In this document: in pieces, positions 2,629 through 64,000 of the stretch | Position numbering within the stretch: the stretch's first letter is position 1 | How the letters are laid out: each line of letters opens with the position of its first letter | NCBI GenBank assembly: GCA_964016885.1 | Contig: OZ024743.1 | Coordinates: 117,304,001 to 117,368,000 of the forward strand | DNA from: Eledone cirrhosa | Taxonomy: Eukaryota | DNA length: 64,000 nucleotides | Direction: 5' to 3' | Notes under the pieces: generated by a model | The model's input: the letters and a program-made list of their open reading frames with translations, nothing else | Database searches by the model: none | Told to the model about the DNA's origin: nothing | Translations under genes and position numbers: made by a program

Positions 2629-3519
2629 AATGAATAATAACAGGTAGACCTCATAAAAAGGTAGTTTATTCCGTGTGCTTACAAGTGTTTCCACCGTGGT
2701 GCTGCAGCCTGGTTCCGCTACGTGCAAATTCACAAGTATTTGCAGAACTCGAATATCCAATGCTGTGACCACTGTTTCCTCAGAGCAGAATGGTAAATAT
2801 ACAATGTAAAAACCCTTAAGTGGGGTTGTTGGGGAAGATAGAGTGGAACAGGAAGAGAGAAAAGTAGGGAAGAAGGAGAGAGAAGGAAAGATATGCAGGG
2901 GTTGGAGAAGTAGGAGAGAGTGGCTTGTAGATATCTTAATCAAAATGTTATGGTAGGGGTTTTATTAGTTACTTTTGGAGAGATGCGTAGATAGTTGAGG
3001 TCGGAATTATTTATTGCCCCAGAGGGCAGGTTCATAAATGTTGAGAGGGATGTAGGTCAAAGGTGAGAGAGAGAGAGAGTGTAATGGATGTAGAGAGAGA
3101 TATATAGGTAGAGAGGGGACAGATAAATATGTGTGGTGAGTGAACTTTTGGTTTTGTAGTAGTATTCTAGGAGTTGTACTGAGTTACCATGTATAGTGAT
3201 AAGCAGTGTATTGTCTTGTAGTGTGGGGGGAAGAGAAGGTTGTTAGCTAGAAAGTGGTGTTGTAGTTACGGGTTCGAATGCTAATAGTCAATCACTATAA
3301 ATATTACTTGAGAAGATCGGTTAAAGTATCTCTGTTGACAATCACCACTGTCCACGTTTTCCATCTCCAGGAATATTTTAACTAGTTTTCTAAAGTTATA
3401 CTTACTGTGATCAACCAATAATATAGTCATTTATGGGACTACTATACTACTTATGTGTGTGAGTGTGCATTACTGCGTCTGTGAGTGTGTGTGCGTATGT
3501 GTGTATGTGTATAACACGT

Positions 3520-46694: not shown

Positions 46695-48958
46695 ACATCT
46701 ACCCCCATCCCACCAGACCCCACCACACCAAACATCTCCGTCCCCACCGTGCCGGAAACCACCACCCACCCAGACAACCCCTCCAACACCCCCATGGAAA
46801 TCGTGCAGCCTGGTCCCCAGGAGACGAAGAGTGAGTGATTTATTTTCCTCTTTTAACTTTTCAGCACCAACATGGCCAATATAAGAGTTGGATGTGTGAA
46901 CGTACGCGGCTTGGGGATGCCCTGGAAACAGGGCAAACTCTTAAACGACCTCAGGTCGCACAGTATGGATGTAGTAGCCATTTGCGAGTTCAGGATCAAT
47001 AGCGAGCGACAGCTAGCCTCCATCTTCGATGACTTTGAGATCTACGCATCTCTCTGTCAGCCGGGGGTGGGGGCGGGGTTGCCGTTTTGCTGGGAAAACA
47101 CCTGGGCTTCGTAACACAGACGGTACATCTGGACACGCATGGTCGACTGGGAGTCCTAGACGTTGACGGTAGTGAAGGTGGAGCCTTCAGGCTGGTGGCT
47201 GCATATGCCCCATCCGGGACACCGCGGCCAGACTTCTTCAAACGTCTAGAGACTGTTATGGGAACGTCCTGCTCCTTGCTTTTAGTGGGTGACTGGAATG
47301 GAATCCTAGATGCACGTCGGGACTATGTGGGAGCATGTCCCGATAAAAGGGGGGTGTAACAACCTCAAACAGTTAATCGACCGATTTGACCTGGCCGATA
47401 GATATCGACTAGATTTTCCGACTGTGCCACTGTGGACGTGGACTAATCTTAGCGGAACATCTAGATCGTACCAAGATAGGGTTCTAGTTAGAAAGAAGGA
47501 TAGGGACATGTTAAGCTGTCCACAAATGTTCATGGTTGCCTATTCAGATCACAAATTAGTGACCTGCTTAGTCAAACTTGACAAAACCCATAGACAGGGA
47601 CCCGGCTACCGGAAGCTGAACTTGTCGTTACCGACATGCAAAACCTACAGTAGACGGATTAGCACTTTATTTAAGCAGCACTTGACGGGGGCCATTGTCA
47701 ACAACAGATGGTGGTACTCTCTCAAGAGGGCAGTTAGATTAGACTCGATAGGTTTTAGTAAAGAATTAGTGTTAGATAGAACTAAAACCGGAAAGGAACT
47801 GGTAGATAAATAGAGAGGCACTTGGGAGTAGCAACGTAGCCAGCGTGCTAGCGACGAGAACGGCATTGGACCAGTTCTTCGACGCAAAGCATGAAGGCTG
47901 CGTTGTCAGATGCAAAATACGGGCTCTGGGAAACGAGGGAGCCAAAGCTGTTAGCTGGGCTCGAGTGACGGAAGCAAAAAGTGGCAACAAGTCCACGATT
48001 CGGTCTTTGAAGGACCAAGACAGACACGTGATACGTGAACCGAAGCAGATGTGCGCGGCCTTTCAGCGGCACTTTGCTCAACTGTTCGGGCAGGGCAGCG
48101 CGCCGGGAGAGGCTATGGATTTCGGTCCATACCTCGACGGCGTAGAGGACAACGAACTAGCAAGTCTGTTCGGTAGGACCTTCCGCCCGGGACCAATGGA
48201 CAACTTCCAAAAGTCCCCGGCCTGGTATTGCTACCGAGGAGCTCTACCAGTTCGAGATAAGCTCTACAGACACGGGCGCCCGGGCAGGGACCCTTCGAAA
48301 AAGATCTGCCCGAGATGCGTGTGCCACTAGGAAACCGTAGCGCACGCATTTGTACACTGCCCGGGCGTTACCGAAAGGTGGGGCTATGTAGAACGACTAT
48401 TGTCGCGGGTGGGACCAATCCAGTTGACCACCGAATCCATTGTCATGATCAAACCGCCACCCTCCTTCAAAAACGAAGGAGAGGCGGTTTTCCTATGTGT
48501 AATGGCTATGGTAAAAGAGGTTATATGGTGGACGAGGTTAAAAGGGCTGATGTCAGGCACCTTTCTCTCCGGCGAGCAACTGATTCGTTTTTCAAATATC
48601 ATTTTGGAAGAAGAATCAGGATGGAGAGAGAGGTGCTGTACCCCAGCAAATGTTATAAAAGGTGGGTAAATGTGACAAAGATGGCCCGAGTGGTTGGGCC
48701 TTCTCTCTATATAAGCCTATAGGTTGAGGAAAAAGAGGAAGAGAGGAAGGGAGTACTCACTCTTGGTGTTCCTGGAGCTGAGGGTTGTACATTTTTTCGG
48801 GGTGTGTTCAACACCTGTACAACCCCTGTGTAACCCCTATTGGGGATTTCAATTGTTATTTGTTATTTTATTAATAGTTTTATTTTCATATACCTGTATG
48901 TAAACTCTCTATTTGTAGTTGTCCCCTTCTTTTGTGCCCTTGTGGCTAATAAAGAAAT
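46695..48958 (+). mobile_element. Tx1 (L1-clade) LINE, ORF2 with the RT core deleted
   Basis: APE endonuclease motifs (GCVNVRGL, DVVAICE, AYAP, LVGDWN, TWTN..SYQDR, SDH); linker joined near 48135 to the C-terminal RGALPV..CPRC..ETVAHAFVHC; 3' UTR ends cccttgtggctaataaag. Confidence 0.88.
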
Positions 48959-51175: not shown

Positions 51176-52005
51176 TGATAGAGTGTCAAACTGATGATAT
51201 AAATGTACGGCATGTAGGCGTATTATTTTCGCAAATATTTCTGCTGTTTAATAATAGAGCTCTCTAGATTTTCATAATTTCAATTTTCGGTTGTTAACCG
51301 AAGGTTTGGTGGCTCATATTCATCCAGCGACGTTATGTTTTTGAATCAGTGAGGAAATCAGTAAGTATATTTAGATCTAGAGCTCTTATTTAGAAGTATA
51401 ACATTAAAAGATGATGAAATGGATTTCCGTGATATAGATTTTTTTTTTGGTTTACATTACGTTACACTTACCATCTCAAATGGTTTGCATTTCATAAAAA
51501 GTATAAAATACAATCTGATCATCATCCGATATAGCATATGAAGCGTAAACTTTAGGGAAAAAATATGTATTGGTTTAAAAATATAATGTATATTATATTT
51601 ACTTTCGTGAATAATTTTAGTAAATATTCATGCGGCGCGATTCATTAAACTGACTAGCTCCGTTGGTACATACCCGCTCTTTTAATATCTGGGTAGAGGG
51701 TTCGAGCTCAACGTTGGGAGAAACAGGTAATTATATAGCGATATCTTTATTTTATTATTTAAGTTGATTTTATGTTTAATTTTTCGGTCATAAAAAGAAG
51801 ACATTTATTATTTTGTAAACTCAAAAAAAGCATCAGCTATGTTCATACGGAAAAGGTGAGTTTGTGAAAATATATTTCTCATACCAAAAAAGACGTATAT
51901 TGTATGGAAATATCAGCTATATAGTATATGAATTTTAAATATGTTTTCAAATTTACAAACCTATTTGTGTAAGTACTAGATATCCGTATATTTAGTAAAA
52001 AGTTT

Positions 52006-52078
52006 ATGCGGCAATCTCAGTCAGTACAGCATGAGACACTTAATGTCAGAGTGGTGTGTTTGAGCCCCACCTTGTGTG
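52006..52078 (+). pseudogene. tRNA-Lys pseudogene (another remnant at 51648-51720)
   Basis: ctcagtcagtacagcatgagacacttaatgtcag...gagccccac. Confidence 0.65.
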
Positions 52079-52538
52079 AAAAAGGTATTGTTTTCATAAT
52101 TTTATTTTTAATTTGTCATTCATTGTACCTGTACAGTTCGAAATGGCATATGTATATATCATGATCAATTGATATTCATCCTAAATATCTAATAGCAAAG
52201 CGAAATTTTCAGTGAGTTTTCACAACCTTCATATATACTTATGAAATTATTTTGCTATAGGTATCATATGATTTTACTAATATTGATTTTACAATAGAGA
52301 AATTGCAGCAGAAAAAAAGCAAGTTCAATTCAAATGTAAATTTATTACATGAAAAAAGCTCGTTTCTTAATCATGAATGATTATATTTCTCGCAGTATTT
52401 GTTTAATATATTTATATTGTGACGATACTGATGTAATTATGCCGTCAAATATATAGGTTATAGATATATAGCCGAAATGACTCAGTTGAACAGTCTAAAC
52501 GAAACTCTGTATATATATAAGAATATCTTGAAAGAGCA

Positions 52539-52612
52539 GATTCTGTGACGCAATCGGTTAACGCGTTCGTCTGTTAAGCGAAAGGTTGGTTATTCAAGTC
52601 CAGTCAGGGCCG
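52539..52612 (+). pseudogene. tRNA-Asn(GTT) pseudogene
   Basis: Diverged copy of the array Asn gene; preceded by an ~18-nt Phe stub at 52471. Confidence 0.75.
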
Positions 52613-52945
52613 TAATGATGTATTTTTGCTATAGAAACCTTACAGGAAATCTGTATGTTAAAGTTTACATTTTGTATTTAGAAATATTTGAAACACTCAT
52701 ACATGTCTAAATGTATTACCCTAACATACAACTTTGCTTTACATTACGATAACCTTTTCATCTCTACTGGATTGTATTTTATACAAAATGTTCATATTTC
52801 TAACTTAACCAAACACTGACCATCATCTGATGGAACATATAAAGTGTATATTAAAAAGAAATTCTAATGATTTAAGAATCTAAAGTAGATTATATTTATT
52901 TCTGTTTAAATTATTTCGTAAATATAGATACAGCACGGATCATTA

Positions 52946-52985
52946 ACCCGACTAGCTCAGTCGGTAGAACAGGAGACTCTTAATC
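52946..52985 (+). pseudogene. 5' half of tRNA-Lys(CTT), cut just after the anticodon loop
   Basis: acccgactagctcagtcggtagaacaggagactcttaatc|acggtatgacc. Confidence 0.85.
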
Positions 52986-53470
52986 ACGGTATGACCATCT
53001 TCCCGTACCGCGGTGGCAAACTCCTCGTCTGGGTTGCCACTTGCAGCGACACTTTCTCCAGCCGCAACCTGGTGCAGTCTGCGACTAACCCAGGTACAGC
53101 TGCACATCGGGCTGAGTAGGCCAAACTCTCCAAGTACCGATCACTCACCGATAGGTTCGCGGTCGTGTCCTTGGCAGTGGAGACTTCTGGTGCCCTTGGC
53201 ACTAGGGCTACCTCACTATTCATCACCATAGGGAGTGAGCTGGTCAGCCGTAAGTGTGAGCCTTGCAAGCTGGAATGCCTCTTCCAGCGCATCTCCTTTA
53301 CCATCCTCCGAGGAAACGCCTTCTCCATCCTGTCTGCCAGGGCTGTGGGGAGACCAGGACATGGCACCCCATTTGCTCACCATACGAATTAATAGGCATA
53401 ACTATTGTAAATAAACCAACCTAATTAATGGTAAAAAGAAAAATTACATATTAGTTACGAATCTGTGTCT
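52986..53470 (+). mobile_element. 5'-truncated CRE-clade non-LTR retrotransposon (endonuclease C-terminus + 3' UTR)
   Basis: GMTIFPYRGGKLLVWVATCSDTF...AVETSGALG...LFQRISFTILRGNA; homologous to 57600-57750. Confidence 0.85.
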
Positions 53471-53567
53471 GATTTAAAAGAAATACTAATGATTTAAAAG
53501 TCTAAATTAGATTATATTTATTGCTACTTAAATTCTTTCGTAAATATACATACAGCACGCATCATTA

Positions 53568-53640
53568 ACCCGTCTATCTCAGTCGGTAGAGCACGCGACT
53601 CTTAATCTCGGGTTCGTGTTTTCGAGACCCAAGTTGAGAA
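53568..53640 (+). pseudogene. tRNA-Lys(CTT) pseudogene
   Basis: ctcagtcggtagagcacgcgactcttaatctcggg...; T arm degenerate. Confidence 0.75.
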
Positions 53641-54154
53641 AGGTATTATTTTCATGATTTATTTTTTAAATTGACATTGACATTACCTATAACTTAGGAA
53701 ATAAATGTATGGCATAATTATATAAAAAGCTCGTTTCTTAAGCACGCTTTTTTCTGTAAATAGTCAAGGGATCTCTAAATGTGTGAAAAAGACAGAAATT
53801 TTCAATCTGCAGAAAAATATAGAAATTTTTAATCGGACATTATGATATTAATATTCCAATAATTTCACATAAACAACAAGCAAATTATATCACAGTGTTT
53901 TATGAGATCTAGCGGTAATTCCTGAGTAGAACCGTGTGGAAATGGAAGCACCAATGGAAACATACATTTTAAATCTCTGAAGCCGTTTATGAAAGTATTG
54001 AAGAAGACAAGAAAACACACTTCGATCTTCCGGCGTGGAAGAGGCTCCTATCAGAAGAAACCGAATCATCATTTTTCTTACCTGTTGTACAAACCTGGCT
54101 GGACACAGAACACTGCACAAACATTCTAAACGTTCTATAGAGTTATGAAATAAT

Positions 54155-54331
54155 TGATTCTACTTTTGGCACAAGGCCAGCAATTTCCCAGTGTATTACT
54201 GGTACTTTATTTTATCGACCCCGTAAGGATGAAAGGCAAAGTTAAACTCAGCGGGATTTGAACTCAGAATGGCAAGGGCCGTAACTCTATGCGTCAAAGC
54301 ATGGCGTCCGACCCTCTACCGATACTGCCAA
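54155..54331 (-). mobile_element. tRNA-derived SINE
   Basis: Same family as 12141. Confidence 0.88.
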
Positions 54332-54761
54332 TTCACATGAAATAATATATATGAATAAGCCATAGATGACGAACATCATTAAGTAATGTCAGTTTCATGA
54401 GGGGATAAAACGCCTCCATCCTTTTGAAGGAAAAAAAAAATGCAAATGAGTCTATAAATCCTGGAAAACTGTAAGTCCGGTATTTGAAAAAAACAAAAAC
54501 AAAAACAAAAAAAAAACACAAGGGATTGACACTCCAAATCCACTATTCTCCTTTTACTTTGCTCCACTTTTCAAGTTAAATGACACGACGGTTCAGTTAT
54601 ATTCAAATATTGTAAGCGCCTCCATTGAGAATATCGTTACGATGTTTGCGAAAATGTAAAACAAATATTTATATCCCAGACAGAAATGTTAACTTTATTT
54701 CTATATACTTTTTTTTTATATAATAGTCTGCTGGTGGATTTTGTATTTCGCTCTATACCTT

Positions 54762-57700
54762 CACCATTAACAAGAGGAAGGCAACGACGACAACAGTGTC
54801 ATTAACAACAACAACTCTACCATTAACAAGAGGAAGCCAACTCCAGCATCAGTGACTCACCTCCAGCGCCCCTTATTTTCTCTCTTGTTTTCTGGCACCT
54901 CCATATATATAGGTGAGCTATGAGGCCCTCTTACCAGCACTTTCCCTTCCACCCACACACGCCAGCCACCCACCTCTGAAGCGCTCGGTGCCCCAGTCCT
55001 CGGCCCCACTCCCCATCGCCCACCCCTCCAAGCCGACACCTGCAGCACTTTCAGCACCACTAACAAACGGAAGAGGGGTCGGAACTGTTTGGGGGTGCAG
55101 CTGCTTCCACCACCTCACACGCGTTGGCTTGACTCGTCGAGCGTCCAATCCCCTCGCAGCGTGGAGGTTCAGGAGCTGCCTCTTTCCCACGTCTTCACAA
55201 CCACGGCCGTCTGGCACACCACCGGATGGGACAGCGAGCTTGTCTGACGCTCGAGCCTCGCTGGTCAACATCGCTCGGTTCAGGCGGCTCCGGAAGATCC
55301 CACTCAGGAGCCCGAGAGCGGCACGGGTGCCAGTAGCCGATGCCCTCGCTTCCTTGATTGAGAGCGCCCTGGACTCCAATCGAGCCAGTGACTGGGAGCG
55401 GCTGTTCTATTTCGCCCCACTCGCCCTCGGCCTCCCCAACTCTGGCGCTGACCGGGGCGGCCGGTCAACAGCAGCCTTCGTCAAGGCCAATGTCTCGTTC
55501 TTTGGGCGAGCGCCCATTCCAAGCGTGCCCAGGGACACCACACCCCCACCGTCAGATACCCCCTATCCTCCACCCCAGAGGCCAGCGCCAAGCGTTTGAG
55601 TGACCAGGTAAACGCCAATCTTATCATGGGTAATGTCTCGGCCGCAGTCAGAGTTGTTGCCTCAGAGGACACTGTCCTCCAACCCAACAAGGCGGTCCTG
55701 GCTGCTCTTCGGCTCAAACACCCTCAGCCACCCACTGATCTCAGACCCATACCCCCACCCGACCCCCACGTGCTCCTTGTGGCTACTGATGCAGACATCA
55801 TGTCCGCCATCAGGTCCTTCCCAGCGAGCAGCTGCGGAGGTTTTTATAGTCTCCGACCAGGCCACCCCAAAGAGTTGACATCCCCCCTCTCCGCTGAGGC
55901 CATGCCTCCCCATCTGAGTGCAATTGTGGTGCTCACCAATAGGCTCATCCATGGTGCCCTGGAAGCTTACGCCCGAGGCCTCTTTTTTCGGCCAGCCTCA
56001 CCGCTCTCAGGAAGAAAGATGGTGGCATACGCCCCATTGCTGTGTGCAATCTCTTCCGGAGGCTGGCTGCCAAGGTGATCTGCAAGTCCGTAACACACAA
56101 ACTGGGTGAGGAGTTTAGTCCGGTGCAACTGGGTGTCGGCGTGTCTGTTGGCTGTGAGGGGGCCGCTCCTGCAACTAGGCAATTCTTCAACAGCTGCCCA
56201 TCGGAACCGGCATCCAGGGACTCCAGGCACATCATTGTCAAGCTTGACATGAGGAATGCCTACAACTCTTTACGCCGGCATCATCTGCTCGTGGCCTGCC
56301 TCAGCCGAGCCCCCTCTGCCTACCCGCTCGCCTACCTGTCATATGGAGCCGCGAGCATGCTCCTTGCTGCTGATACGGTCATACCCTCGGCTACTGGGGT
56401 CCAAAAGGGCGACCCTTTGGGACCCCTCCCGTTCGCCCTTGGTATTGACCACATCGCTCGGAGTACCCAGGCCCCTCTCAACTTTTGGTATCTGGATGAT
56501 GCTACGTTGGGCGGGCCCGTACGGACGGTCTGCCCTGACCTTCAATCGGTGGTGCCTGCCCTGGCCGGAGTCGGCCGCCAGGTAAACTCGGTCAAGTCGG
56601 AGGTGGTGAACGTCAGCCTCGATGCTGCGATCTTTTCAGCATCCGTCTTGGACGTGCTGTCCATTCTCCAAAGAGGATGTACTCATCCTCGGGTCCGGAT
56701 CCACCCGCCGGCCATCCGCTCCACCATCAGGTCCAGGCTTCAACAGCTCCAGACTCTCACGAGCCGACTGGGCTTGATTGACGGCCACCCAGCTCTCTTT
56801 CTGCTGAGGAACTGCTTCGCAATGACGAAGCTCATCTATACACTCCGCAGCGATCCATGCTACACCCAGAGATCTCTCCTCTCTGACCTCGATACTTGTT
56901 TCCGAGCAGCAGCCGAGAGGATATGCAACGTCAAGTTTGACGAAACAGGGTGGAAACAGGCCACTTTACCTGTCAGGTATGGCGGCCTTGGACTCCGATC
57001 CCCGATTTCACTAGCTTTGTCGGCGTACCTTTCATCGATAACCTCGTGCCACGTCCTCGTCAGCAGGGTTCTTCAAAACACAAAAGAACCCTCTGTGTTC
57101 AGAGAACGTGTTCCCACTGTGTTCAGAGAGGTGGGACCGGCTGGGACTTAGCCCAGTAGACGTTCCTCCTCCTTCTCGCCCTATTTATTTCAAGTCCCCC
57201 CAACGCACTTGGGATGACATCCAGTGCAGCCTGGTCTCAGACAGGTTCACGCGCTAGCTCGACCAGCACAGCCTTGCTTGTTTTCGTGCGGATACCAAAC
57301 CCCAAAGTAGTACCTGTCTCCATGCCCGGCCCTCCTTCTCCACTGGCACGCAGCTAACAACTATAGCCTGCGAATCTGCGTTTCCCTGAAGCTCGAACAC
57401 CGGATCTGCCAGCCACACCAATGTCGATGCGGTTCCACCGTGGAGTCTTTCGGCCTCCACCCGCTTTCCTGTCGCCACAGTACCGGCCTCAGTCCACGCT
57501 ATGCTGCCCTCAACGAGGTCTTTAAGCATGGCTTGGATGCTGTAGGCTCCTCATCCCAGCTCTAACCGGTGGGGCTGGATAGAGGGGACGGCAGAAAGCC
57601 AGATGGCATGACCATCTTCCCGTTCCACCGTGGCACACCCCTCGTCTGGGATGCCACTTGCACGGATACTTTCTGCAGCCGCAACCTGGTGCAACTGACC

Positions 57701-57762
57701 CAGGTTCTGCTGCACGTCGGGCTTAGGCGGCCAAAGTCCTCAAATACCGGTCGCGCTCCGAG
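54762..57762 (+). mobile_element. Near-full-length, frameshifted CRE-clade non-LTR retrotransposon (RT + restriction-like endonuclease)
   Basis: LRLKHP, LRPGHPK, FRRLAAK, PVQLGVG..GCE, KLDMRNAYNSL, GVQKGDPLGP, WYLDD, ATLPVRYGGLGLR, DGRKPDGMTIFPF..LVWDATCTDT; the 3' end is lost and joined to a tRNA-Asn 3' remnant. Confidence 0.88.
56042..57151 (+). pseudogene. Reverse transcriptase domain of the CRE-like element
   Basis: 369-aa ORF with GVQKGDPLGP and WYLDD motifs. Confidence 0.9.
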
Positions 57763-58122
57763 AGGTCCATCCAGGATAGTAATGGTCTACTTTTGCATTA
57801 GAAAGATTACTAAAAATCTGTATATTTAAGTTTACAGCTTGTATTTAGCATTATTTGTAACACTCATACATGTTTAAATGTATTATCCTGATAGAGATTA
57901 ATTTTGCATTACGTTATCTAAACCATTTAATCTCTACTGGATTGTATTTCATAAAAAATGGTCATATTTATAACTTAACCAAACGCTGACCATCATCTCA
58001 TTGAACACTCTTTTTTTAAATAAATATAATCTATTTAGATTGTTAAATTTAACACTCTAGAGTAGATTATATTTATTTTTGTTTAAGTTCTTTCGGAAAT
58101 ATACACACAGCACACATCATTA

Positions 58123-58195
58123 ACCGGAACAGCTCATTCGGTAGAGCAGGAGACAGTTAATCTCGGAGTCCTGTGTTTGAGCCCCTCGTTGTGTG
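58123..58195 (+). pseudogene. tRNA-Lys pseudogene
   Basis: Diverged array copy. Confidence 0.7.
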
Positions 58196-58594
58196 AAAAT
58201 GTATTGTTTCCATAATTTGTTTCATAAAATTGACATTAACATTAAATATATATTACGAAATAAATATATGGTACATTACGTATTATGATTATTTGATAGT
58301 CATCCTCAATATCTAATAACAAAGAGACATTTTCGGTGAATTTTCAAAACCTTCACATATACTTATAAAATTATTTTTCTATAGGTATGATATGATTTTA
58401 CTAATATTAATTTTAGAATATAGAAATTGCAACAGGTAAAAGGATGTTCAATTCAAACGTACATTTATTGCACGAAGAAAAGCTTGTTTCTTAAGAATGA
58501 ATGATTATATTTCTTTAATTATTTGTTTAATATATTTATATTGTGACGATATGGATGTAATTATGACGTCAAATATATAAACTGTAGCCGTGTA

Positions 58595-58668
58595 GACAAA
58601 ATAGCTTAGTTCGGAGAGTGTTAGACTCTCAATTCTAAAGGTCTCCTGTTCAATCCCGGGTTTCGGCA
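58595..58668 (+). pseudogene. tRNA-Phe pseudogene
   Basis: Anticodon loop altered; 3' half caatcccgggtttcggca retained. Confidence 0.75.
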
Positions 58669-58944
58669 TGCTGACGTATTATTTCCACAATTATTTCTAT
58701 TGTTGTTTATAGCGATCTCTATATTATTTAAAATTTCAATTAATCAAATTTTTATTTTTCAGTTATCAAAAAATCAGTTTTATTTTGAATAAGGAAGTTC
58801 AATTCAAATATTTATGGTTTACATAAAAATTATTCGTTTCTTAATCATAAATGATTATATTTCTCGCAGTATTTGTTTAATATAAATATATTTTGACGAT
58901 ACTGATGTAATTATGACGTCAAATAGAGTGTCACTGGCCGTACA

Positions 58945-59018
58945 GCCGAAATAGCTCAGTTGGGAGTGCGTTAGACTGAAGATCTGAAGGTCCCATGTTC
59001 AATCCCGGGTTTTCTGCT
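58945..59018 (+). tRNA. tRNA-Phe(GAA), probably defective
   Basis: gccgaaatagctcagttggga..ttagactgaagatc; acceptor 3' strand mutated. Confidence 0.7.
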
Positions 59019-59324
59019 TGCAGACATATTATTTCCTCAAATATTTCTAATGATTTTGATAGAGAACTATATATGATTTAAAGAACAATTAATCGAATGG
59101 TTCATTTGTCAGTCATCAAAAAGTCACTTTTATTTTTGTAGACATCAAAGAATACCAACTATCAGCAAAACGTCATATAGTTCAGGTGTGTTTTTGAACA
59201 TTTAGTTCCGATTCAATAAAAGAGCAATATTAGACGAAAATATCAGCTATTCAGTTCATCAATTCAAATAATGTGTTGAACATTCTAAACGAAACTGTCT
59301 ATATATGAATGTATAGTAAGAGCT

Positions 59325-59398
59325 GTCTCTGTGGCGCAATCGGTTAACGCGTTCGGCTGTTAACTGAAAGGTTGGTGGTTCAACTCCACCCAGGTACG
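59325..59398 (+). tRNA. tRNA-Asn(GTT)
   Basis: gtctctgtggcgcaatcggtta..ctgttaa..; several substitutions. Confidence 0.75.
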
Positions 59399-59736
59399 TA
59401 ATAGTCTACTTTTGCTTTAGAAACATTACTAAAAAATCTGTATATTTAGGTTTACAGCTTGCATTTAGAATTATTTGTAACACTAATACATGTTTCAATA
59501 TATTAGCCTGATAAAGGTTAATTTTGCTCTACGTTACCTAAACCATTTCATCTCTACTGGATTGTATTTCACCAAAAATCTTCATATTTCTATCTTAAAC
59601 GAACACTGATCATCATCTGATGGAACATATAAAGTGTATGTTATGAAAAATATTCAAATGTTTTAACAATCTAAAGTAGATTATATTTATGTTTGTTTAA
59701 GTTCTTTCGTAAATATACATTCAACACGCACCATTG

Positions 59737-59809
59737 ATCCGGCTAGCTCAGTCGGTAGAGCAGGAGACACTTAATCTCAGAGTCCAGGGTTCGTGTGCAA
59801 CGTTGGGTG
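59737..59809 (+). pseudogene. tRNA-Lys(CTT)-like pseudogene
   Basis: U33 replaced by A (cacttaa) and T stem disrupted. Confidence 0.8.
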
Positions 59810-60203
59810 AAAATGGTATTGTTTCCATATGTTTTATAAAATTGACATTAATATTAATATTACGAAATAGTTATATGGTACATTCATGTATCATGATCAA
59901 TTGATATTCACCCTAAATATCTAATAGCAAAGCGAAATTTTCAGTGAGTTTTCAAAACATTCTTATATATTTATGAAATTATTTTGCTATAGGTATGATA
60001 TATGATTTTAATAATATTAATTTTAGTATATAGAACTTGCAACATGAATAAGGACGTTCAATTCAAATATTTATGTCTTACATAAAAATTACACGTTTCT
60101 AAATCATAAATGATTATATTTCTCGAAGTATTTGTTTAATATAAATATATTGTGACGATACTGATGTAATTATGAGGTCAACTAGAGAGTCACTAGCTGT
60201 ACA

Positions 60204-60276
60204 GCCTAAATAGCTCAGTTGGGAGAGCGTTAGACTGAAGATCTAAAGGTCCCCTGTTCAATCCCGGGTTAAGGCA
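60204..60276 (+). tRNA. tRNA-Phe(GAA)
   Basis: 73 nt, close to the metazoan Phe consensus; one acceptor-stem and one T-stem mismatch. Confidence 0.8.
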
Positions 60277-60582
60277 TGCAGACGTGTTATTTTCTCAAAT
60301 ATTTCTAATGTTTTTGATAGAGAACTATATATGATTTAAAGAACAATTAATCGAATGGTTCATTTGTCAGTCATCAAAGAGTCACTTTTATTTTAGTAGA
60401 CACCAAATAATACCAACTATCAGCAAAACGTCATATAGTTCAGGTGTGTTTTTGAACATTTAGTTCCGATTCAATAAAAGAGGAATATTAGACGACAATA
60501 TCAGCGATACAGTTTATCAATTCAAATAATGTGTTGATCATTCTGAACGAAACTGTCTATATATGGATGTATAGTAAGAGCT

Positions 60583-60656
60583 GTCTCTGTGGCGCAATCG
60601 GTTAGCGCGTTCGACTGTTAACTGAAAGGTTGGTGGTTCAAGTCCACCCAGGGACG
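60583..60656 (+). tRNA. tRNA-Asn(GTT)
   Basis: 74 nt, near consensus. Confidence 0.85.
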
Positions 60657-60994
60657 TAATAGTCTACTTTTGCTTTAGAAACATTACTAAAAAATCTGTA
60701 TATTTAGATTTACAGCTTGCATTTAGAATTATTTGTAACACTAATACATGTTTCAATATATTAGCCTGATAAAGATTAATTTTGCTTTACGTTACCTAAA
60801 CCATTTCATCTCTACTGGATTGTATTTCACCAAAAATCTTCATATTTCTATCTTAAACGAACACTGATCATCATCTGATGGAACATATAAAGTGTATGTT
60901 ATAAAAAAAATTCAAATGTTTTAACAATCTAAAGTAGATTATATTTATGTTTGTTTAAGTTCTTTCGTAAATATACATTCAGCACGCACCATTG

Positions 60995-61067
60995 ATCCGG
61001 CTAGCTCAGTCGGTAGAGCAGGAGACACTTAATCTCAGAGTCCAGGGTTCGTGTCCAACGTTGGGTG
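60995..61067 (+). pseudogene. tRNA-Lys(CTT)-like pseudogene
   Basis: Same lesions as 59737. Confidence 0.8.
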
Positions 61068-61449
61068 AAAATGGTATTGTTTCCATGATATGTTTTATAA
61101 AATTGAAATTAATATTAATATTACGAAATAATTATATGGTACATTCATGTATCATGATCAATTGATATTCACCCTAAATATCTAATAGCAAAGCGAAATT
61201 TTCAGTGAGTTTTCAAAACATTCTTATATATTTATGAAATTATTTTGCTATAGGTATGATATGAATTTACTAATATTAATTTTAGTATATAGAACTTGCA
61301 ACTTCAATTCAAATATTTATGTTTTACATAAAGATTACTCGTTTCTAAACCATAAATGATTATATTTCTCGAAGTATTTGTTTAATACAAATATATTGTG
61401 GCGATACTGATGTAATTATGACGTCAAATAGAGAGTCACTAGCTGTACA

Positions 61450-61521
61450 GCCGAAATAGCTCAGTTGGGAGACGTTAGGCTGAAAATCTAAAGGTCCCCT
61501 GTTCAATCCCGGGTTTCGGCA
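61450..61521 (+). tRNA. tRNA-Phe(GAA), 1-nt deletion in the D stem
   Basis: 72 nt; gggagacgttaggctgaaaatc. Confidence 0.7.
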
Positions 61522-61827
61522 TGCAGACGTATTATTTTCTCAAATATTTCTAATGATTTTGATAGAGAACTATATATGATTTAAAGAACAATTAATCGAA
61601 TGGTTCATTTGTCAGTCATCAAAAAGTCACTTTTATTTTAGTAGACACCAAATAATACGAACTATCAGCAAAACGTCATATAGTTCAGGTGTGTTTTTGA
61701 ACATTTAGTTCCGATTCAATAAAAGAGGAATATTAGACGACAATATCAGCGATACAGTATATCAATTCAAATAATGTGTTGATCATTCTGAACGAAACTG
61801 TCTATATATTGATGTATAGTAAGAGCT

Positions 61828-61901
61828 GTCTCTGTGGCGCAATCGGTTAGCGCGTTCGACTGTTAACTGAAAGGTTGGTGGTTCGAGTCCACCCAGGGAC
61901 G
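61828..61901 (+). tRNA. tRNA-Asn(GTT)
   Basis: 74 nt with ggttcgagtcc B box. Confidence 0.87.
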
Positions 61902-62239
61902 TAATAGTCTACTTTTGCTTTAGAAACATTACTAAAAAATCCGTATATTTAGGTTTACAGCTTGCATTTAGAATTATTTGTAACACTAATACATGTTTCA
62001 ATATATTAGCCTGATAAAGATTAATTTTGCTTTACGTTACCTAAACCATTTCATCTCTACTGGATTGTATTTCACCAAAAATCTTCATATTTCTATCTTA
62101 AACGAACACTGATCATCATCTAATGGAACATATAAAGAGTACGTTATAACAAAAATTCAAAAGTTTTAACAATCTAAAGTAGATTATATTTATGTTTGTT
62201 TAAGTTCTTTCGTAAATATACATTCAGGACGCACGATTG

Positions 62240-62312
62240 ATCCGGCTAGCTCAGTATGTAGAGCAGGAGACACTTAATCTCAGAGTCCAGGGTTCGTGTC
62301 CAACGTTGGGTG
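62240..62312 (+). pseudogene. tRNA-Lys(CTT)-like pseudogene
   Basis: Same lesions as 59737, plus a D-loop change. Confidence 0.8.
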
Positions 62313-62707
62313 AAAATGTTATTGTTTGCATGATATGTTTTATAAAATTGACATTAATATTAATATTACGAAATAATTATATGGTACATTCATGTATCAT
62401 GATCAATTGATATTCACCCTAAATATCTAATAGCAAAGCGAAATTTTCAGTGAATTTTCAAAACATTCTTATATATTTATGAAATTATTTTGCTATAGGT
62501 ATGATATGAATTTACTAATATTAATTTTAGTATATAGAACTTGCAACAGGAATAAGCAAGTTCAATTCAAATATTTATGTTTTACATATAAATTACTCGT
62601 TTCTAAATCATAAATGATTATATTTCTCGAAGTATTTGTTTAATCTAAATATATTGTGGCGATACTGATGTAATTATGACGTCAAATAGAGAGTCACTAG
62701 CTGTACA

Positions 62708-62780
62708 GCCTAAATAGCTCAGTTGGGAGAGCGTTAGACTGAAGATCTAAAGGTCCCTTGTTCAATCCTGGGTTTCGGCA
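62708..62780 (+). tRNA. tRNA-Phe(GAA)
   Basis: 73 nt with a few stem mismatches. Confidence 0.78.
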
Positions 62781-63086
62781 TGCAGACTTATTATTTTCTC
62801 AAATATTTCTAATGATTTTGATAGAGAACTATATATGATTTAAATAACAATTAATCGAATGGTTCCTTTGTCAGTCATCAAAAAGTCACTTTTATTTTAG
62901 TAGACACCAAATAATACCAACTATCAGCAAAACGTCATATAGTTCAGGTGTGTTTTTGAACATTTAGTTCCGATTCAGTAAAAGAGGAATATTAGACGAC
63001 AATATCAGCTATTCAGTTTATCAATTCAAATAATGTGTTGAACATTCTAAACGAAACTGTCTATATATGAATGTATAGTAAGAGCT

Positions 63087-63092
63087 GTCTCT

Positions 63093-63126
<34 letters not shown>

Positions 63127-63160
63127 TGAAAGGTTGGTGGTTCAAGTCCACCCAGGGACG
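63087..63160 (+). tRNA. tRNA-Asn(GTT), best-preserved copy
   Basis: All stems pair when G-U is allowed; a tttt run follows ~11 nt downstream. Confidence 0.9.
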
Positions 63161-63498
63161 TAGTAGTCTACTTTTGCTTTAGAAACATGACTAAAACATC
63201 TGTATATTTAGGTTTACAGCTTGCATTTAGAATTATTTGTAACACTAATACATGTTTTAACATATTACCCTGATAAAGATTAATTTTTATTTACGTTACC
63301 TAAACCATTTCATCTCTACTGGATTGTATTTCACCAAAAATCTTCATATTTCTATCTTAAACGAACACTGATCATCATCTGATGGAACATATACAGTGTA
63401 TGTTATAAAAAAAATTCAAATGTTTTAACAATCTAAGGTAGATTATATTTATGTTTGTTTAAGTTCTTTCGTAAATATACATTCAGCACGCACCATTG

Positions 63499-63571
63499 AT
63501 CCGGCTAGATCAGTCGGTAGAGCAGGAGACACTTAATCTCAGAGTCCAGGGTTCGTGTCCAACGTTGGGTG
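63499..63571 (+). pseudogene. tRNA-Lys(CTT)-like pseudogene
   Basis: Same lesions as 59737. Confidence 0.8.
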
Positions 63572-63966
63572 AAAATGGTATTGTTTCCATGATATGTTTT
63601 ATAAAATTGACGTTAATATTAATATTACGAAATAATTATATGGTACATTCATGTATCATGATCAATTGATATTCACCCTAAATATCTAATTGCAAAGCGA
63701 AATTTTCAGTGAGTTTTCAAAGCATTCTTATATATTTATGAAATTATTTTGCTATAGGTATGATATGAATTTACTAATATTAATTTTAGTATATAGAACT
63801 TGCAACAGGAATAAGCAAGTTCAATTCAAGTAGTTATGTTTTACATAAAAATTACTCGTTTCTAAATCATAAATGATTATATTTCTCGAAGTATTTGTTT
63901 AATATATATATATTGTGACGATACTGATGTAATTATGACGTCAAATAGAGAGTCACTAGTTATACA

Positions 63967-64000
63967 GCCGAAATAGCTCAGTTGGGAGAGCGTTAGACTG
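63967..64000 (+). tRNA. tRNA-Phe 5' part, cut off by the window end
   Basis: gccgaaatagctcagttgggagagcgttagactg. Confidence 0.85.

Follow-up and report, generated by a model that had tools for sequence, protein, structure and literature searches.

Does a retrotransposon that lies in a tandem tRNA array, on the same strand as the tRNAs, and that runs directly into the 3' end of a tRNA-Asn gene owe its position to those genes, or did it come to rest there as it might have done elsewhere in the genome? The question is raised by a 64,000-nucleotide stretch of Eledone cirrhosa DNA, referred to here as the window, which corresponds to C4:117,304,001-117,368,000 in the 3.0-Gb genome. The original prediction was that the element belongs to a CRE family tied to the array.

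The tRNA array and its decayed edge

The array is entered from about position 51,200 of the window and ends at about C4:117,714,700, a total of some 360 kb, the whole sequence of which was examined. Its unit of approximately 1,259 bp contains Asn(GTT), a Lys(CTT)-derived copy and Phe(GAA), and there are 273 matches per tRNA type in the part of the array past the window. Units in the core are 96-100% alike, whereas those at the edge are only 66-84% identical to the core. The following features define the left edge of the array:

51,208-53,745, + strand: decayed left edge of the Asn-Lys-Phe array, its aligned parts 66-84% identical to the core unit
51,286-51,333 and 52,542-52,613, + strand: Asn remnants, from alignment to the core unit
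51,682-51,718, 52,006-52,078, 52,948-52,985 (5' half) and 53,567-53,640, + strand: Lys remnants, from alignment to the core unit
52,986-53,443, + strand: first fragment, the 3' end of a sister subfamily, with the end of the endonuclease, a 3' UTR, AATAAA at 53,410 and an A-rich tail at 53,433-53,443
57,781-64,000, + strand: Asn-Lys-Phe array after the join, decayed to about 59,300 and then homogeneous with a unit of about 1,259 bp

ARAGORN with default settings made no tRNA calls in the decayed left edge. When the array was mapped genome-wide using a piece of the spacer as query, the best 40 of 281 candidates all fell inside the Asn-Lys-Phe array. A search with the Rfam tRNA model, in which 63 of about 552,000 candidates were scored, gave 16 loci, mostly of a tRNA-like repeat. 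At the far end of the array, several other insertions are present. Arrays of U2 were also located in the genome.

Extent and domain structure of the element

The element lies downstream of the first fragment and comprises the following parts:

53,830-54,859, + strand: AT-rich 5' leader (36% G+C), common to dispersed copies (L007, L028 and others)
54,150-54,336, no strand assigned: short interspersed repeat nested in the leader
54,763-54,780 and 54,819-54,836, + strand: duplicated 18-mer, internal to the leader
54,860-57,766, + strand: GC-rich core of a CRE-like LINE, 85-91% identical to 29 other long copies
55,041-55,179, + strand: N-terminal PHD finger remnant that carries a frameshift and has lost cysteines; intact counterpart in L011
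56,009-56,608, + strand: reverse transcriptase domain (Pfam RVT_1, E = 8.5e-9)
57,423-57,766, + strand: CCHC zinc knuckle and start of a restriction-like endonuclease (RH..E..KPD..D), from translations of the open reading frames, the motifs of L002 and L011 and a match to the R2Tg profile

The core, at 59% G+C and on the strand of the tRNAs, bears out the earlier description of a 3-kb GC-rich element with a reverse transcriptase. Its start had been placed at 54,762; the leader, however, reaches back to about 53,830, some 930 bp further 5'. Used as a query, the leader returned 173 candidates, and a CRE core followed within 1.5 kb in 24 of the 30 loci examined. Because the leader is common to dispersed copies, the true 5' junction falls within the Lys-Phe spacer, approximately 190 bp downstream of the Lys copy. 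It follows too that the 18-mer is internal: its duplication, noted previously, was confirmed at 54,763 and 54,819, and the same pair recurs in L004, L007, L010, L016, L020, L021 and L028. A 7-mer shared with the Lys flanks had been taken as a link to the tRNA genes. This sequence lies some 930 bp inside the element, is present in dispersed copies also, and was counted 46 times in 390 kb of random DNA, so that the link falls away.

The repeat nested in the leader is found in some copies and not in others, and has many free copies in unrelated flanks; it is probably a SINE. The leader exists, in addition, as a 238-bp variant. Splicing was considered as the origin of this variant and was not established, the variant junction being one base off a clean GT-AG join.

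The core is a single open reading frame with several frameshifts and stop codons. Alignment by tblastn with an intact homolog breaks it into six pieces in three frames and, judged from this reading-frame damage, the window copy is dead. The C-terminal part of the endonuclease has been lost, and Pfam gave no PHD match for this copy. Questions of domain structure were answered with two natural copies: L002, which has a natural open frame of 930 amino acids containing RVT_1 (E = 5.8e-10), and L011, which has an intact N-terminus and the C-terminal half. The order of domains in the natural copies is a PHD finger, the reverse transcriptase, the CCHC knuckle and the RH..E..KPD..D endonuclease. The PHD match in L011 (E = 9.4e-5, 22.8 bits) lies below the Pfam cut-off of 24, a cut-off that was passed by two of 10 homologs scanned.

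Proposed relation to the CRE clade

Homologs were found in 419 of 8,000 sequences scored, and the analyses that follow refer to the 120 of them that were listed. A PHD-like pattern is present in 32 of the 120, and a C2H2 pattern in two. In place of the N-terminal zinc fingers expected from the original prediction, L011 and some of the homologs have a finger that appears to be of the PHD type and not C2H2. The loose CCHC and endonuclease pattern is present in L002, L011 and 113 of the 120 homologs, and the invariant columns among relatives are C, R, H, E, RPDG and D. The strict endonuclease spacing published for SLACS, CRE1 and CRE2 (PMC12857005) was found in none of the 120 homologs, nor in L002 or L011. 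The window family has C-x1-C-x9-H-x3-C-x8-RHA/T, as against the published x7-8, x9-10 and RHD/N, a mismatch of one residue in two spacers together with the residue after RH.

A profile built from 82 relatives matches R2Tg from the reverse transcriptase through the endonuclease (profile positions 211-897 to R2Tg 629-1353, E = 1.9e-23). One member of the homolog cluster, 39% identical over 416 amino acids, carries the name 'Retrotransposable element SLACS protein' in its source, and six of the 120 listed homologs are from Octopus sinensis (43-51% identity); the ESM Atlas returned only RVT_1 clusters without names. Copies of the family have 3' ends of the poly(A) type, and CRE-type LINEs have been reported in cephalopods (PMC10294476). 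Reverse transcriptase, knuckle, restriction-like endonuclease and SLACS-named homolog agree with the CRE identity proposed at the outset. The architecture and the homologs support classification as a CRE-like LINE, a label that is drawn from motifs and the SLACS-named homolog; the formal criterion for the clade is that the reverse transcriptase groups with CRE1, SLACS, CZAR and Cnl1 in a tree. Among the proteins that the searches returned, none was a reference CRE protein.

The join to tRNA-Asn

The earlier description of the 3' end proved accurate: the element is cut short within the endonuclease region, at 57,766, where tRNA-Asn takes over from about its position 61, followed by spacer. Alignment to the array unit resumes at 57,765. 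The feature is as follows:

57,765-57,780, + strand: probable deletion junction (2-nt overlap, GT) and tRNA-Asn 3' remnant

The join is covered by a 231-bp sequencing contig (57,698-57,928) with no differences, with 67 bp on one side and 163 bp on the other; this contig was obtained in one of three runs from one sample, possibly the one used for the assembly.

The 29 other long copies all extend to core position 3,112-3,160, which is 204-252 bp past the stop of the window copy at 2,908. The join is thus most likely a deletion scar and not an insertion site. Moreover, it lies inside the open reading frame on the 3' side, where an insertion junction cannot lie, which places the deletion after the insertion. 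We conclude that the join to tRNA-Asn most likely arose by a deletion made after the element had inserted. This event would have removed at least 200-250 bp of the 3' end of the element and at least about 0.5 kb of the array, consisting of the rest of the spacer, Phe, a further spacer and the first 60 nt of Asn. At 13 nt from the join, and in register with it, 11 of 15 bases are identical between the element and tRNA-Asn; of 300 random element positions, 13 show as much likeness. This is suggestive of a deletion aided by microhomology.

The first fragment and the upstream sequence

The first fragment lies 390 bp from the element, in the same array edge and on the same strand as the tRNAs, and over 169 bp the two are 79.9% alike, in keeping with the earlier observation that they have diverged. 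Its 5' junction is in the Lys anticodon arm. It is flanked by a duplication of approximately 147 bp of array sequence. The two flanks are 85.9% alike, a figure that equals their identity to core units and fits either a target-site duplication or two array units. The 3' end of the sister subfamily gave 4,652 first-look candidates as a query (not a copy number). Among 24 other sister copies, none has a flank duplication above the 99th percentile of the null; one exact 12-mer was seen.

The preceding 51 kb had been described as free of CRE sequence, and this was offered in support of association with the array. The statement is not quite correct, since positions 1,205-1,437 hold a weak CRE-like piece, on the - strand, that was detected by blastn (E = 9e-5) and matched by one of 121 protein queries. 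With a background of five to six CRE pieces per 390 kb, an empty 51 kb has a probability of 0.46-0.52. The near-absence is therefore expected from the low background density and does not support an association.

Dispersal of the family

Used as a query, the element gave 4,509 first-look candidates (not a copy number), of which 40 were scored, on 13 contigs. Neither the array unit nor any of nine tRNA types was found within 1.5 kb of any of 84 other distinct loci, made up of 29 from the element query, 29 from the sister 3' end and 26 from the leader query after the removal of three that duplicate element-query loci. The upper 95% bound for this count is 3.5%, and it applies to the best-scoring copies and not to a random draw; the 1.5-kb 5' flank of the long copies is partly leader, and decayed tRNAs outside the nine types may escape, as ARAGORN at default settings missed the decayed tRNAs of the window itself. 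Only the window's own loci were positive. Matches from a relaxed ARAGORN search at six of 29 loci were discarded as false, since they fall within the element itself or its nested short repeat and for the most part disappear under stricter settings. The flanks of the family copies are unrelated to one another. For a second CRE-like family, none of 29 loci was near a tRNA.

The array core of about 340 kb, with some 270 intact units, contains no CRE copies by DNA or protein search. The original prediction had itself named a preponderance of copies far from tRNA arrays as the observation that would count against it, and this is what was found among the sampled loci. From these sequence comparisons, we conclude that sequence targeting of the tRNA array is refuted, and the element appears to be a dispersed LINE copy and largely ordinary.

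CRE-like pieces at other tRNA clusters

Pieces of the second CRE-like family are present at the far end of the array and at both ends of a Thr array (C1:243.65 Mb). In a test whose plan was fixed beforehand, seven Lys loci were found with a tRNA-only query, and CRE-like pieces were present in four of nine end windows compared with five of 39 random 10-kb windows (p = 0.05). Pooling with three ends chosen post hoc gave seven of 12 cluster-end windows against five of 39 (p = 0.003). In these figures, three of the 12 windows were chosen post hoc, one array contributes two windows that are not independent, and two families are pooled; the controls were random windows and local flanks. Restricted to the four largest contigs, the Lys-locus test gave 3/6 versus 5/19 (p = 0.27) and the pooled set 6/9 (p = 0.05), or 6/9 versus 6/54 with local flanks (p = 0.0009). 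From four to as many as 11 of 30 loci have a second CRE piece within 1.5 kb, and because CRE pieces cluster with each other in this way, the p-values of the cluster tests are inflated.

In a second test, also fixed beforehand, no enrichment was seen at Gly, Glu and Pro genes, where one of 13 tRNA genes has a CRE piece (95% interval 0.2-36%) compared with eight of 195 random 2-kb windows (p = 0.45). This test, planned with flanks of 1.5 kb on either side, used 2-kb windows (-600/+1,400 in the tRNA direction) at 15 loci collapsed from the first 100 of 371 motif matches; the count over all loci is 1/15, two of the 15 have no ARAGORN call, and three clusters were seen by the 2 kb of their first gene only. 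The sole positive, L299, is a long family copy that starts approximately 140 bp behind tRNA-Glu on the same strand. Local flanks without tRNA had a CRE piece in one of 175 2-kb windows.

In two Lys arrays the pieces have been carried into the repeat unit. At C4:128.68-128.73 Mb, almost all 1.9-kb units contain a piece of about 216 bp on the opposite strand, and at C4:79.57-79.62 Mb, a piece of about 552 bp recurs about every 3.3 kb, also on the opposite strand, together with a second piece. Further cluster-linked pieces lie at C2:16.35 Mb and C11:31.67 Mb. The pieces at tRNA clusters share no flanks and are thus separate events. They lie 0 to 1.7 kb from the tRNAs, on either strand, with no fixed position. 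The two sets of results are compatible: nearly all copies are remote from tRNAs, and the clusters may nonetheless attract or retain a few times more than background.

Discussion

The history that we consider probable is that a dispersed CRE-like LINE, now frameshifted, inserted without specificity behind a tRNA-Lys copy at the edge of the array and was later joined to tRNA-Asn by a deletion. An RNA copy would have been inserted by target-primed reverse transcription, with the restriction-like endonuclease nicking the target, by analogy with R2 (PMC12503042). The site, in the spacer behind tRNA-Lys in the decaying edge of the array, would have been unselected, and a subsequent deletion would have fused the endonuclease region to the 3' end of the downstream tRNA-Asn. 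Insertions may persist at array ends because these lie outside the reach of the unequal exchange by which the core units are held 96-100% alike, and would gather insertions and deletions; such exchange would either purge an insertion or spread it to every unit, as in the two Lys arrays.

Three other explanations bear on parts of this history. That the join is an error of assembly is suggested by the repetitive character of both sides, but the contig covering it with no differences (one of three runs, one sample) argues against this, as does the spacer behind the join, which is a diverged edge unit, 80.6% identical to the core and in register with the array; we regard an error as very improbable. 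More improbable still is a CRE element that targets tRNA arrays, with the Asn junction, or the 7-mer before tRNA-Lys, as its target site. The proximity of two copies, 390 bp from each other in a single array edge and on the strand of the tRNAs, would fit such targeting, as would the description of most CRE-clade members as target-specific and the existence of tRNA-specific elements with restriction-like endonucleases (PMC4640811). Against it stand the absence of tRNAs at the 84 other loci and of copies in some 270 intact units, a join that lies inside the open reading frame 200-250 bp before the family 3' end, a 7-mer that is internal and common, and distances of 0 to 1.7 kb on both strands.

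There is a small chance that the family, though dispersed, favours the open chromatin of tRNA clusters several-fold as a place of insertion, with no fixed site or strand, guided perhaps by the PHD finger or by the scarcity of nucleosomes at Pol III loci; the Asn join would still be a deletion scar. Independent pieces at C4:128.7, C4:79.6, C2:16.35 and C11:31.67 Mb, at the ends of the Thr array and at the far end of the present array point in this direction, as do the Lys-locus test (4/9 versus 5/39, p = 0.05) and the pooled comparison (7/12, p = 0.003), since random insertion does not predict an excess; the low frequency in local flanks without tRNA (1/175) and the PHD-like pattern in 32 of the 120 listed homologs are also consistent with it. 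On the other side, the Gly/Glu/Pro test gave 1/13 versus 8/195 and the four largest contigs 3/6 versus 5/19 (p = 0.27), three windows were post hoc, two windows were not independent, the families were pooled, and clustering of CRE pieces inflates the p-values. Nonspecific insertion at the array edge followed by deletion remains our preferred account.

The window family resembles the CRE clade (CRE1/CRE2, SLACS, CZAR; Cnl1, MoTeR, FoTeR) in its single open reading frame, reverse transcriptase, C-terminal CCHC knuckle and RH..E..K/RPD..D endonuclease, as well as in its poly(A)-type 3' ends and SLACS-named homolog (39% identical over 416 amino acids). SLACS, CRE1 and CZAR are reported to target SL RNA genes (PMC12278014), and MoTeR and FoTeR telomeres, whereas the window family has no fixed target or regular target-site duplication (0/24 above null), carries an apparent N-terminal PHD finger rather than the C2H2 fingers of fungal and most trypanosomatid CRE members, and departs from the strict published spacing. 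In the window copy, L299 and L277, which lie 140-200 bp behind a tRNA gene, there is a likeness to tRNA-targeting elements (Dictyostelium TRE5/TRE3, NLTR-A/B and yeast Ty3; NeSL-1_TV and LIN15/LIN25). Elements of the TRE5/TRE3/Ty3 type are described as inserting in narrow windows about 50 bp upstream or about 100 bp downstream (PMC5006619), and other tRNA-specific elements with restriction-like endonucleases as inserting in the gene (PMC4640811). Most copies of those elements are tRNA-linked, unlike the 84 sampled window-family copies, none of which is, and position and strand in the window family are variable. Protein contact with TFIIIB/TFIIIC is a further mark of the TRE5/TRE3/Ty3 type. R2Tg and R2Bm are the best solved relatives (profile match to R2Tg, E = 1.9e-23), but R2 is specific for 28S and has zinc fingers and Myb (PMC13580325, PMC12503042), whereas the window family is dispersed. 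The HERO clade, reported to encode a restriction-like endonuclease and to be largely non-specific (PMC4640811), differs in that the motifs and the SLACS-named homolog of the window family point to CRE.

Taken as it is, the locus is of little consequence, being a decayed LINE copy with a probable deletion scar at the edge of an array. In the open-access literature searched, neither a PHD-bearing CRE element nor a CRE bias to tRNA clusters is reported. A reading of low probability is that the PHD-bearing CRE-like LINEs of this genome gave up sequence targeting but keep a chromatin-guided regional bias to tRNA clusters. If true, this would represent an intermediate condition between CRE elements with a specific site and LINEs that insert at random, with captured pieces amplified in the tRNA-Lys repeat units, and would offer a testable model of how elements with restriction-like endonucleases lose site specificity. 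Were the bias to hold genome-wide, the family would be an animal CRE-like element steered to Pol III clusters by chromatin, through its PHD finger, and not by sequence.

Organisation of the 5' region

The 5' leader of the dispersed CRE-like LINE family, which in the window copy spans 53,830-54,859, is a mosaic (L098-L127 and L043-L045, together with the window copy). Alternative upstream segments are all joined at a single point, window position 53,927; a 238-bp block is present in some copies and missing from others, and a short repeat is nested within the leader of some copies. The leader reaches up to about 1.5 kb in length, and this mosaic could represent captured host sequence (5' transduction).

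Among the 29 best-scoring long copies other than that in the window, five (L018, L023, L024, L026 and L027) are 5'-truncated, with breakpoints no more than 6 nt apart (window 55,061-55,066), directly behind a C-rich tract. The flanks of these five copies are unrelated. This zone is a truncation hot spot of the family.

A ubiquitin C-terminal hydrolase (UCH/USP) domain is found in the same open reading frame in 9 of the 120 protein homologs among the matches listed:

P0017, P0018, P0020, P0022, P0046, P0049, P0050, P0052, P0071

In P0017, the domain lies behind the reverse transcriptase (E=1.5e-38). The nine are CRE-like LINEs with a predicted deubiquitinase.

Two further pieces lie in the window:

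1,205-1,437, - strand, weak, old CRE-like 3' piece
47,806-48,722, + strand, open frames near 47.8-48.7 kb

The open frames gave no match in a Pfam search; they resemble the end of a Tx1/L1-type LINE.

tRNA arrays and tRNA-like repeats

The Lys(CTT) copies of the core of the tandem Asn-Lys-Phe tRNA array are located as follows:

window 59,737-59,809 and 60,995-61,067, and the rest of the core

This copy is likely to be a pseudogene homogenised through the array, because ARAGORN made no call for it in about 270 core units and because it differs from intact Lys genes elsewhere in the genome in the anticodon loop and the T arm. Lys copies at the array edge look nearer to the intact gene than do those of the core.

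Antisense CRE-like pieces are fixed in the repeat units of two tRNA-Lys(CTT) arrays, comprising some 216 bp of the 3' end at C4:128.68-128.73 Mb (L257-L262) and some 552 bp of the RT/thumb region at C4:79.56-79.62 Mb (L277-L282). Both are retrotransposon debris, amplified together with the array. At C3:127.505 Mb (L299), an intact tRNA-Glu(TTC) is followed after about 140 bp by the start of a long family copy, both lying on one strand.

Other small-RNA gene arrays in the genome include a tRNA-Thr array of about 52 kb (L160-L166, C1:243.648-243.700 Mb), Gly and Pro tRNA clusters (C1:141.18-141.28 Mb and C3:235.8-236.05 Mb) and, at C3:307.35-307.45 Mb, U2 snRNA genes arrayed in units of about 2.2 kb. 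A dispersed repeat (L140, L142-L150) contains a well-scoring tRNA-like gene, whose flanks are the same between copies and which often lies within inverted repeats. Its anticodon varies, being GGC in most copies, with AGC, GAC, GTC and GGT also seen; the repeat is likely a DNA transposon with a tRNA look-alike.

3' ends of the sister subfamily

Copies of the sister subfamily (L048-L077), the relatives of the first CRE fragment, end in a conserved AATAAA, a copy-specific tail of 8-31 nt and an A run, the last being no more than 40 nt away in 18 of 28 copies. There are 17 distinct tails, with prefixes common to some. It is likely that many source copies were each polyadenylated in their own flank and, if so, the copy-specific tails are a built-in genealogy of the subfamily.
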